A stretch of DNA of 64,000 nucleotides, taken from NCBI GenBank assembly GCA_963813535.1, contig CAWEZH010000002.1:1-64000 (forward strand), read 5' to 3'. The notes under the pieces are model-generated. The model did not search any database. It worked only from the letters and a program-made list of their open reading frames with translations, and was not told the origin of the DNA. The DNA is from an uncultured Chloroflexia bacterium (GTDB lineage: Bacteria > Chloroflexota > Limnocylindria > Limnocylindrales > CSP1-4). Of this stretch, positions 37,121 through 37,561 are shown in pieces. The position numbers and the translations under genes are program-made. Positions within the stretch are counted from its first letter, which is position 1, and each line of letters begins with the position of its first letter.

Positions 37121-37561
37121 ATGAACTACGAGCTGTTCATGGGCGAGGCTCTGGCCGAAGCGCGATTGGCCATGGAACGCGGCGAGCGACCGATCGCCGC
37201 GGTCGCGGTCGTCGACGAAGCGATGGTCGGCCGTGCCCATGACCGCGTCGAGGAGACGGACGATCCGACGGCCCACGCGGTCGTGGTCGCACTCCGCGAA
37301 GCCTCCCGTCGCCTGGGTCGGGGACGGCTGGCCGACGCCACGATCTTCGCGACGATGGAGCCGTGCGCCATGTGCGTCGGGGCGCTGCTGGAGAGCGATG
37401 TCGAGGCGCTCGTTTATGCGGTCCCAAACACGCGCAACGGTGCTGCCGGCACCGTGATCCAGCTTGCGCAGCATGCGTCGTTGCCGCGTCGGATCAAGAT
37501 CGTCAGTGGGATCCGGCGAGACGAGGCCGAGGCGATGCTCACGGCCAGTACGACCGTCTGA
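37121..37561 (+). CDS. tadA: TadA-like nucleoside deaminase homologue lacking the catalytic Glu
   Basis: Colinear with TadA: M..AL..A, GERPIAAV, DPTAHAV, RL.DAT, EPCAMC.GA, GAAG; HAE is HAV. Confidence 0.85.
   Translation: MNYELFMGEALAEARLAMERGERPIAAVAVVDEAMVGRAHDRVEETDDPTAHAVVVALREASRRLGRGRLADATIFATMEPCAMCVGALLESDVEALVYAVPNTRNGAAGTVIQLAQHASLPRRIKIVSGIRRDEAEAMLTASTTV

Follow-up and report, generated by a model that had tools for sequence, protein, structure and literature searches.

A tadA orthologue kept under selection in two orders of Candidatus Limnocylindria without its catalytic glutamate or its tRNA substrate

TadA is regarded as a near-universal and essential tRNA-editing enzyme of bacteria. 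The window analysed here, a 64,000-nucleotide stretch of DNA from an uncultured member of Candidatus Limnocylindria (Chloroflexota), carries a full-length tadA-like gene whose product has valine at the position of the catalytic glutamate, which raises the question of what such a gene is kept for. The coding sequence of this TadA-derived protein (37121..37561, stop codon included; like every feature given below, on the forward strand) specifies 146 residues, and both the ATG start and this length are common to most orthologues. The GTC codon at 37280..37282 encodes Val54, equivalent to E. coli E59, in the motif H52-A-V54; we refer to such proteins as HAV and to those with the glutamate as HAE. 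In its sequence the protein retains all three zinc-ligand residues, with Val replacing the catalytic Glu: H52 (codon 37274..37276; E. coli H57) and, within an EPCxMC zinc-binding motif (E80-P-C82-A-M-C85, 37358..37375), C82 and C85. The histidine and each of the E, P, C, M and C of the motif are kept in 121 of 121 sequences compared. Asp41 (37241..37243) occupies the position of the near-invariant TadA Asn (E. coli N46). Ungapped alignment with 8e2q and 8e2p, two E. coli-numbered TadA chains (E. coli numbering being query residue plus 5), gives E59 to V, A106 to V, D108 to N, K110 to R, N46 to D and N127 to P, the differences that a preliminary description of this DNA had also read, and puts the C-terminus at E. 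coli position 151. The protein matches Pfam PF14437 (88.6 bits) and PF00383 (75.6 bits) and scores 116.4 bits against the NCBIfam TadA equivalog NF008113, below the cut-off of 150 bits.

The gene lies in a conserved tadA neighbourhood. Downstream of it come tRNA-Ser(CGA) (37611..37696) as the first gene, tRNA-Ser(GGA) (37751..37838), the SRP RNA gene ffs (38781..39045; Rfam RF01854, 180 bits) and dnaX (an ORF at 39082..40731, with 41–42% identical homologues at the same position in a second order, f4). This order, from the HAV gene to dnaX, is identical in f4, and in the outgroup family f5 tRNA-Ser(CGA) directly follows an HAE tadA. In the tree the HAV clade is monophyletic on a long stem (SH-aLRT 97; P0162, a chimeric metagenome protein, was ignored). 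By synteny and tree, the window's gene is a direct positional orthologue of tadA.

Expression of the gene may start from a leaderless promoter. A -10-like box, TAGCAT (37107..37112), lies 8 nt before the ATG. Among 113 unique upstream sequences of orthologues, 105 have a TANNNT box that ends 6–9 nt 5' of the start codon and only 7 have a Shine–Dalgarno-like motif, a pattern that fits the leaderless-type promoter first proposed. A generic sigma-70 promoter and terminator scan returned no sites, leaving the TAGCAT box undetected; it found no terminator-like site between the coding sequence and the tRNA-Ser genes, so co-transcription with them is possible. In RNA runs X15 and X16, contigs covered only the tRNA genes, the 5' end of pfk and the beginning of the ORF. 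X4, a run labelled as cDNA but whose RNA nature is a guess, gave a 294-nt contig of a near relative spanning 37091-37384.

How widespread is the substitution? We collected 127 unique homologues, all full-length, from genomes of Candidatus Limnocylindria, leaving out tblastn matches that did not span query residues 7–136; for dN/dS and residue comparison, sequences that lacked an ATG, GTG or TTG start or fell outside 140–160 residues were also left out. At the catalytic site 120 of the 127 read HAV, one HAL and six HAE. HAV is found in all 21 genus genomes that have a match (24 searched), in every one of 30 loci drawn from 10 genera of the window's family and, in the second order f4, in nine of ten loci, the tenth being HAL; the 120 closest database proteins all read PTAHAV. 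In the residue comparison the catalytic position is V in 120 of 121 and L in one, versus E in 67 of 67 HAE TadAs. Outgroup families of the class are HAE (8 of 8 in f3, 1 of 1 in f5), and of the six full-length HAE homologues, five from f3 and f5 and one a second copy in the f4 genome G207, five end in FFxxRR and one has AF. The orthologues, together with the reading frame and the alignment, thus bear out the preliminary description of an intact tadA orthologue without its catalytic Glu; they are HAV, not HAE, and show no neutral decay.

The distribution also has gaps. The genome-reduced sister family f2 (1.1 Mb) yielded no homologue in successive searches (0 of 42, 0 of 16 and 0 of 7 genomes), and because this family lost it, the HAV gene would be dispensable in a streamlined cell. 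Several fairly complete genomes of the window's own family, such as G106 (97%) and G131 (94%), gave no match, and three of the 21 genus genomes (G007, G015 and G022) have fragmented or truncated copies, which may reflect assembly indels or real decay. G207 carries an HAV copy and an HAE copy; the latter sits on a 7.6-kb contig, groups away from Limnocylindria TadAs in the tree, and may be contamination or a transfer. Beyond this clade, four other Glu-less TadA-like proteins appeared among the 150 best representatives: P0161 (HAV, retaining an F-L..RR tail), P0192 (HAA, first Cys lost), P0202 (HPI) and P0236 (HAP). P0161, sought in 301 genomes for a placement in Chloroflexota, found best matches no more than 49% identical.

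What has become of the substrate? The window carries tRNA-Arg(GCG) (28291..28366; Rfam tRNA, 69.9 bits), a G34 tRNA that replaces the substrate tRNA-Arg(ACG), next to its conserved neighbour tRNA-Ser(GCT) (28139..28230); both this gene and the tadA neighbourhood lie where they had first been described. ARAGORN finds arginine tRNAs with anticodons gcg, tcg, ccg, tct and cct (two copies) in the window's genome (G000, 92.9% complete), and none of its 51 calls there is a credible A34 tRNA. One possible tRNA-Arg(ACG), an 84-nt ARAGORN call with its anticodon at position 37 (G000:C2:109330-109413), was discarded, since it matches no Rfam tRNA model at E≤1 and lies inside an alanine-racemase gene read in two frames. 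As a separate observation, the window's order is also without TilS and has tRNA-Ile(UAU).

Relatives share the same replacement. tRNA-Arg(GCG) is present in 30 of 30 genus loci, 5 of 5 f2 genomes and 4 of 5 f4 genomes, the sole exception being G207, in which it was not found; HAV genomes of the window's family and of the second order carry the tRNA-Arg set GCG, UCG and CCG. Two of four f3 genomes have ACG, with no GCG there, and the single f5 genome returned neither. When an outgroup ACG tRNA was used as query against 81 family genomes (39 genera), no ACG was among the 30 best matches, which were 21 GCG, 5 TCG, 3 Gly and 1 Val; these searches used BLAST, and anticodons were read in the fetched loci only. 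Within that scope, the earlier claim that tRNA-Arg(ACG) has given way to GCG stands, with no credible ACG in the window's genome or in the loci read, and HAV genomes carry GCG while outgroups are HAE, an association that is one evolutionary event and not a set of independent replicates. The anticodon loops, UUGCGGA in tRNA-Arg(GCG) versus CUACGAA in the outgroup ACG tRNAs, show that more than position 34 differs; the GCG tRNA could derive from an A34G change of the ACG gene or be a recruited paralogue, 76 nt being too few to decide.

These observations suggest an order of events. In the common ancestor of the window's order and the second order, arginine CGN decoding would have switched from tRNA-Arg(ACG, edited to ICG) plus CCG to tRNA-Arg(GCG) plus UCG and CCG, a switch that would have left TadA without a substrate. 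Three things that A34 deamination requires have gone from the protein: the proton-shuttle Glu (E59 to V), the near-invariant active-site Asn (N46 to D) and, at the C-terminus, the FF..RR element by which the anticodon loop is held. The TadA fold, three zinc ligands, dimer-interface residues, length and promoter have been retained, and purifying selection on the protein since then has been as strong as on active TadA.

Constraint on the protein is evident in the sequences. Across 7260 pairs from 121 sequences, NG86 dN/dS has bin medians of 0.12–0.34 and a maximum of 0.87, and ten pairs of outgroup HAE TadAs give 0.11–0.33, although dS estimated by NG86 cannot be relied on when GC3 is about 0.8, as here; the purifying selection expected from the start is therefore like that on active outgroup TadAs. 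Forty positions, H52, C82 and C85 among them, are at least 99% conserved in the 121 sequences, and the motifs DPTAHA, EPCxMC and GAAG are maintained in the HAV clade, as is the 146-residue length across two orders whose proteins are 52–61% identical. Val54 is written with all four synonymous codons (GTC 73, GTG 44, GTT 2 and GTA 1 in the 120 HAV homologues). Against HAE TadAs, the clade has switched at five positions (N46D, E59V, Y81F, A91V and G105A) and relaxed at F148 and F149: the N46 position is D in 95% of 118 HAV-clade sequences versus N in 97% of 67 HAE TadAs, and the two phenylalanines, each 93% conserved in HAE TadAs, have A as their commonest HAV-clade residue (31–33%). An aromatic pair in the C-terminal tail survives in 1 of 121 HAV sequences. 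A face of the N-terminal helix, N2, Y3, E4 and L5, is newly fixed.

The predicted structure is that of TadA. An AlphaFold2 model (pLDDT 96.5) searched with Foldseek shows a deaminase fold of the helix-4 division with TadA topology, and its top PDB matches are TadA structures, including those of E. coli (1z3a), S. aureus bound to RNA (2b3j) and B. subtilis (7cph), with TM 0.96–0.98, rmsd 0.7–1.3 Å and 33–38% identity. A homodimer model scored 0.85 versus 0.00 for the best control. Of 30 proteins with solved homo-pair structures 20 attain that mark, as does 1 of 23 whose structures are single chains; at least 98% of contacts are shared between runs, with partner pLDDT of at least 92. As TadA dimers have already been solved, this model indicates likeness to TadA, not binding, and many invariant residues fall in the predicted interface, making them uninformative about the ligand pocket. 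With bacterial TadA the protein thus has in common the H/C/C zinc ligands, EPCxMC, DPTAHA, a predicted homodimer and genomic position; it differs in Glu to Val, N46 to D and Y81 to F, in having no C-terminal FF..RR and in a genome with no A34 tRNA.

A gene conserved for so long with its catalytic residue replaced and the edited tRNA gone points to a protein that does something other than tRNA editing. The orthology, the loss of both catalytic residue and substrate, and the selection are observed; on balance we favour the view that this is a catalytically dead, homodimeric, zinc-binding TadA derivative retained for a non-deaminase role, in line with the pseudo-enzyme first suggested. 'Dead' here rests on the established requirement for the HxE Glu in this superfamily. 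The most likely role would be RNA or nucleotide binding in the preserved, re-lined pocket, or that of a scaffold. In TadA the C-terminal helix touches the anticodon loop through two conserved phenylalanines and basic residues (FF..RR), and loss of this motif argues against canonical tRNA anticodon-loop binding; the original proposal of nucleic-acid or nucleotide binding stays a conjecture.

Rather improbable is a neofunctionalised TadA, whether a zinc enzyme that acts on a new substrate through a relocated catalytic carboxylate, or a specific 'reader' that recognises a nucleobase or an element of RNA and serves in translation. This reading is suggested by re-lining of the zinc pocket (E59V and N46D, with Y81F), by the fixed N2, Y3, E4 and L5 and by loss of the clamp; in its reader version, the role would have been taken over as the lineage rebuilt wobble decoding, in which I34 was lost first and then, in the order, lysidine and TilS.

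The enzymatic alternative, somewhat less probable still, is that the carboxylate moved from position 59 to 46, N46 to D having been fixed with E59 to V, and that the zinc site performs hydrolysis on a different substrate, which might be some other base, a nucleoside or nucleotide in free form, or a different site in RNA. Zinc ligands kept in 121 of 121 sequences, the coordinated N46 switch (D in 95% of HAV versus N in 97% of HAE sequences), the maintenance of the other pocket-lining motifs DPTAHA, EPCxMC and GAAG, and a long stem followed by strong constraint, which fits a change of function, are all consistent with it. However, we know of no active member of the cytidine-deaminase-like superfamily that lacks the HxE or CxE Glu. 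The available part of a survey of the superfamily lists Glu-less forms as inactive and describes the strand-2 Asn (E. coli N46) as a synapomorphy of the TadA clade (Iyer et al. 2011, PMC3239186). Moreover, fold and dimer contacts would also explain conservation of the zinc site and of the DPT, EPC and GA motifs.

It is improbable that the gene is a functionless relic, its frame surviving through the promoter or transcription of the downstream tRNA-Ser genes, or through slow decay. The sister family f2 lost the gene without replacement, 3 of 21 genus genomes have broken or truncated copies, and the lack of a terminator-like site before the tRNA-Ser genes makes co-transcription possible. A promoter role, however, would not constrain amino acids, whereas dN/dS of 0.12–0.34 equals that of active outgroup TadAs, Val54 persists through four synonymous codons alongside 40 near-invariant positions, and 146 residues are held across two orders that are 52–61% identical.

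Very improbable is an inactive subunit that pairs with an active deaminase, as the preliminary description had suggested by analogy with ADAT3/Tad3. ADAT3 functions only with its active paralogue ADAT2 and has a large N-terminal tRNA-binding domain. There is some likeness: in the available part of Iyer et al. (2011, PMC3239186), Tad3 is described as derived from TadA, with its zinc ligands intact and, as here, HxV for HxE, and one f4 genome holds HAV and HAE copies together. A partner is nonetheless lacking. The window's genome has only three deaminase-fold genes, and a second TadA among them was rejected, the other two being a yeast-type cytosine deaminase (E 2.7e-46 to 1ysb) and RibD, so that the search there for a second active TadA-type deaminase came up empty. 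In the order, 121 genomes gave no match to the NCBIfam TadA model above its cut-off. The extra deaminases of some relatives (10 loci) are sporadic, and none is TadA-like, all being guanine-deaminase-like or of other types. The protein is a single domain of 146 residues with no ADAT3-like N-terminal extension, mouse ADAT3 chains (about 283 residues) align over the deaminase domain only (TMt 0.45), and the window's genome has no A34 tRNA to act on. Finally, the valine does not stem from faulty sequencing or assembly, which the preliminary description had judged unlikely from the GTC codon, nor is it a mutation confined to one strain with an otherwise normal tadA. Nothing speaks for either, and HAV is common to 120 of 127 unique homologues from many assemblies, all 120 closest database proteins read PTAHAV, and contigs of a DNA run that may be the source sample show no difference from the window over 37142-37499, GTC codon included.

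The comparison with ADAT3 remains instructive under the favoured reading of a catalytically dead derivative kept for another role. Like ADAT3/Tad3, the protein would be a TadA-derived domain without the HxE Glu, with zinc ligands kept, retained by selection as non-catalytic; unlike ADAT3, it has no active paralogue, N-terminal extension or A34 substrate. To our knowledge it is the first free-standing bacterial counterpart of an ADAT3-type pseudo-deaminase, long kept without a catalytic partner. A literature search found no prior example, although relevant lineages may be given in Table S1 and the supplementary figures of the Diwan & Agashe and Yokobori papers. According to the available parts of three studies (Yokobori et al. 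2013, PMC3711424; Ehrlich et al. 2021, PMC8007984; Diwan & Agashe 2018, PMC6063277), the inosine-34 system has been lost in Mollicutes, Spirochaetes, Thermotogae and others, where tadA was lost or, in some Mollicutes, weakened yet HAE. As far as those parts go, Limnocylindria differ in that a Glu-less tadA orthologue survives across two orders under selection.

A second comparison is with the laboratory-evolved TadA variants of adenine and cytosine base editors (TadA*8.20, TadA-8e and TadAC; 8e2p, 8e2q and 6vpc), which share V106 and N108 with the window's protein and match it at 103.9 bits, versus 95.6 bits for wild-type E. coli TadA. The base-editor-like character proposed for these residues does not hold for the clade: of 121 sequences, 59 have V at position 106, with L in 23 others and M in 15, while at position 108 N (89 sequences) alternates with D (23) and H (9). 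Because neither is fixed, the resemblance looks incidental, and unlike the window's protein, the editors keep the catalytic Glu.

The finding bears on how bacterial wobble decoding is read from genomes. In comparative studies a genome is credited with the inosine system if it has a TadA homologue and denied it if it has none, and public pipelines label HAV homologues 'tRNA(adenine34) deaminase' or 'nucleoside deaminase'. With a homologue that has no catalytic residue, tRNA clamp or substrate, homology-based I34 calls would be wrong here, and a class-level soil lineage is affected. The finding also raises the question of what a dead TadA dimer does, and offers natural variation at the positions engineered in base editors, on a scaffold with high predicted folding confidence. 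Taken with the loss of TilS and the presence of tRNA-Ile(UAU), it would mean that Limnocylindrales have dismantled two classic bacterial wobble-modification systems.

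In this lineage a tadA orthologue has lost its catalytic glutamate and its loop clamp, its tRNA substrate is gone, and the protein has been maintained by selection. The open frame (37121-37561, + strand) has 146 codons, and its product matches the MafB19-like deaminase (88.6 bits) and dCMP/cytidine deaminase (75.6 bits) families of Pfam and, over almost its whole length, the NCBIfam TadA equivalog NF008113, at 116.4 bits and so below the cut-off of 150. It has the zinc-ligand motif E80-P-C82-A-M-C85, and in the motif H52-A-V54 the codon GTC (37280-37282, + strand) replaces the glutamate of the canonical HAE with valine (HAV). 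When the protein was aligned without gaps to PDB chains of TadA that carry E. coli numbering (query residue + 5), each position named in the preliminary description was borne out: E59 is replaced by V, A106 by V, D108 by N, K110 by R, N46 by D and N127 by P. Its claim of base-editor-like residues holds for V106 and N108 in this protein, but both positions vary across the clade (n = 121; V 59, L 23 and M 15 at the first, N 89, D 23 and H 9 at the second).

A column-by-column comparison of 118 HAV with 67 HAE sequences shows six switched residues (N46D, E59V, L80I, Y81F, A91V and G105A), a loss of constraint on F148 and F149, and new fixation of an N-terminal helix face and several other residues. 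The HAV protein ends at the point where the canonical FF..RR element would start, and an aromatic pair is seen in one HAV tail of 121; among the tails of six full-length HAE homologues, five have FFxxRR and one AF. Phe149 is placed within the region contacting the anticodon loop by Yokobori et al. (PMC3711424), and Iyer et al. (PMC3239186) count the strand-2 Asn and C-terminal Phe among the characters of that clade of TadA proteins. The aspartate at position 46 could be a catalytic carboxylate that has migrated within a working enzyme, which seems unlikely.

Within the genus, 21 of 24 other genomes hold an orthologue (73-97% identity; fragmented or truncated in G007, G015 and G022), all HAV, and HAV was found in all 30 loci read from 10 genera of the family. 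The TadA model had a match in 72 of 78 family genomes and in none of 42 from the sister family (genomes of 1.0-1.4 Mb), and none of the 121 genomes of the order reached the NF008113 cut-off, most genomes used being incomplete MAGs. A second order (f4; 52-61% identical) gave nine HAV and one HAL among ten loci, and the outgroup families are HAE (f3, 8/8; f5, 1/1). The pooled unique full-length homologues (n = 127) comprise 120 HAV, one HAL and six HAE, so that the orthologues do share the valine, encoded by GTC in 73, GTG in 44, GTT in 2 and GTA in 1. PTAHAV occurs in all of the closest 120 public proteins, which go by the name 'tRNA(adenine34) deaminase' (JGI) or 'nucleoside deaminase' (NCBI).

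The gene is followed in the window by tRNA-Ser(CGA), tRNA-Ser(GGA), the SRP RNA and dnaX, and a tRNA-Ser(GCT)-tRNA-Arg(GCG) pair lies 9 kb upstream, the neighbourhood first described. The second order has the same arrangement (tRNA-Ser(GCT), tRNA-Arg(GCG), then the HAV gene, tRNA-Ser(CGA), tRNA-Ser(GGA), SRP RNA and dnaX), and in f5 tRNA-Ser(CGA) also comes next after the HAE tadA. In a tree of 85 sequences built by maximum likelihood, the HAV proteins come together in a single group with a long stem (SH-aLRT 97) and short internal branches. The gene descends from tadA itself and is no paralogue. Between tRNA-Ser(GGA) and the SRP RNA, the window also holds a metallo-beta-lactamase-fold gene (38055-38789, + strand) whose 3' end overlaps the first SRP RNA bases (38781); its best NCBIfam match, an AiiA-type lactonase (101.9 bits), is far below cut-off, and it is absent at the corresponding place in both f4 genomes inspected. 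Separately, one f4 genome, G207, carries, besides its HAV copy, a canonical HAE TadA whose tail is FFxxRR (loci L118 and L136; C56:3794-4228 and C60:1478-1894). The HAE copy, on a 7.6-kb contig, clusters with non-Limnocylindria TadAs and may be contamination, a transfer or one of a real pair; neither tRNA-Arg ACG nor GCG was retrieved from G207.

The genome that includes the window (G000; 3.28 Mb, 69.4% G+C, three contigs, 92.9% complete) has 51 tRNA genes by ARAGORN, with an arginine set of GCG, UCG, CCG, UCU and two CCU. GCG, UCG and CCG together decode all four CGN codons without inosine under standard wobble rules; in 1329 coding-like long ORFs, CGC, CGG, CGA and CGU make up 39.9, 31.0, 12.8 and 10.7% of arginine codons. 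ARAGORN's sole A34 call, an 84-nt 'acg' with its anticodon at position 37, is spurious: it lacks a match to the Rfam tRNA model even at E ≤ 1 and sits within an alanine racemase gene. That gene, outside the window (C2:108494-109748; locus L001 195-1449), is read in two overlapping frames, the N-terminal part in one and the C-terminal part in another, which reflects a frameshift or else an indel in the assembly. Two further odd calls, 2 kb apart outside the window, are an 88-nt tRNA-Glu(CTC) with its anticodon at position 39 (C2:1329486-1329573) and a 93-nt second tRNA-Leu(GAG) (C2:1331472-1331564), which may be spurious or may be a tRNA pair of a mobile element.

The GCG tRNA that lies beside tRNA-Ser(GCT) was detected by similarity in 60 of 60 further genomes of the genus, with the anticodon GCG in all 30 genus loci read; a second tRNA class there, at 87% identity, is CCG. 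GCG is present in 5/5 sister-family and 4/5 f4 genomes; two of four f3 genomes have ACG and no GCG, and neither was retrieved from the single f5 genome. With an outgroup ACG tRNA as query against 81 genomes of the family (39 genera), there was no ACG among the best 30 hits (21 GCG, one of them from G284, a genome flagged unpublished; 5 UCG, 3 Gly and 1 Val), anticodons being those of the loci fetched. The anticodon loops, CUACGAA for ACG and UUGCGGA for GCG, differ beyond position 34. The tRNA-Arg(GCG) genes of the family and of f4 encode the 3' CCA (window 28291-28366; loci L186 and L195), which is not encoded in the three outgroup tRNA-Arg genes read (ACG, UCG), a small sample. As judged from these loci, HAE is associated with ACG, and GCG accompanies HAV or the lack of the gene; the co-occurrence raised as a check was found, as one transition on the tree, not as independent replicates.

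Purifying selection, raised as a check at the outset, is evident in the HAV clade. Across the 7260 pairs that 121 sequences form, dN/dS by the Nei-Gojobori method had medians of 0.34, 0.23, 0.17 and 0.12 by rising dS bin (maximum 0.87), and it was 0.05 between the window gene and its nearest relative. Ten pairs of outgroup HAE TadAs, presumably active, gave 0.11-0.33; the ranges are comparable and constraint is therefore of the same order. With 40 positions at least 99% conserved in the clade, a functionless relic is quite improbable. Of 113 unique upstream sequences, 105 have a TANNNT box ending 6-9 nt 5' of the start codon and only 7 have an SD-like motif. The data suggest a conserved putative promoter for a leaderless mRNA, in line with the preliminary description; a generic promoter scan detected no site.

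The AlphaFold2 model (65-row alignment; pLDDT 96.5, pTM 0.91) is closest in Foldseek searches of the PDB to TadA structures (TM 0.96-0.98); ADAT2, guanosine deaminase and ADAT3 come next. A two-copy model scored 0.85, and the best of three controls scored 0.00. Of proteins solved as homo-pairs, 20 of 30 reach the mark of 0.85, as does 1 of 23 solved as single chains. Contacts are shared between runs to at least 98%, with partner pLDDT of at least 92. Because TadA dimers have already been solved, the score indicates likeness to them, and dimerisation itself is predicted. The predicted interface holds many invariant residues (D48-T50, H52, C82-M84 and G87-A88). We infer that the protein is probably a zinc-binding homodimer without A34 deaminase activity, with a non-catalytic role in binding or in scaffolding. 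Since the gene has been lost in the sister family, it is probably dispensable under genome streamlining. Eukaryotic ADAT3 is the closest analogue in kind, but, unlike the HAV protein, it works with an active partner, carries an N-terminal domain and has substrates. The inactive-partner role proposed initially, that of an ADAT3-like subunit, is very improbable: besides this gene, the deaminase-fold genes of G000 encode only a yeast-type cytosine deaminase (E = 2.7e-46 to PDB 1ysb) and RibD. A sequencing or assembly error can be dismissed; on the question of a Glu codon in reads, contigs of a public soil DNA run, possibly the source sample itself, are identical over 37142-37499.

In Mollicutes, GCG is described as having taken the place of ACG, with the inosine system lost (PMC3711424); the same is stated for Thermotogae and Spirochaetes (PMC8007984), and several TadA losses have been inferred across bacteria (PMC6063277). 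In these sources, tadA in such cases is absent or, in some Mollicutes, weakened yet HAE, which differs from the situation here; a Glu-less bacterial TadA kept by selection was not found in the literature searched. Public metagenomes also contain the Glu-less TadA-like proteins P0161 (HAV, with an intact F-L..RR tail), P0192 (HAA, first Cys of PCxxC lost), P0202 (HPI) and P0236 (HAP). Three of the four fall outside the Limnocylindria clade in the tree, and TadA may therefore have 'died' on more than one occasion.

The order is also without TilS. The TilS model TIGR02432 matched none of 18 genomes of the family (G000 included) and none of three from the sister family; outside the order it matched 19/19 in f3, 20/20 in f4 and 1/1 in f5. 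G000 has just two tRNA(CAU) genes and a tRNA-Ile(UAU) (C2:1862827-1862902, outside the window; Rfam tRNA 70.1 bits), and UAU was found in 13 of 13 similarity hits in the two families (loci L339-L351). It seems that the order Limnocylindrales reads AUA with no lysidine, a rare state among bacteria. Being without TilS and carrying tRNA-Ile(UAU), the lineage seems to have given up a second classic wobble modification, after the inosine system.
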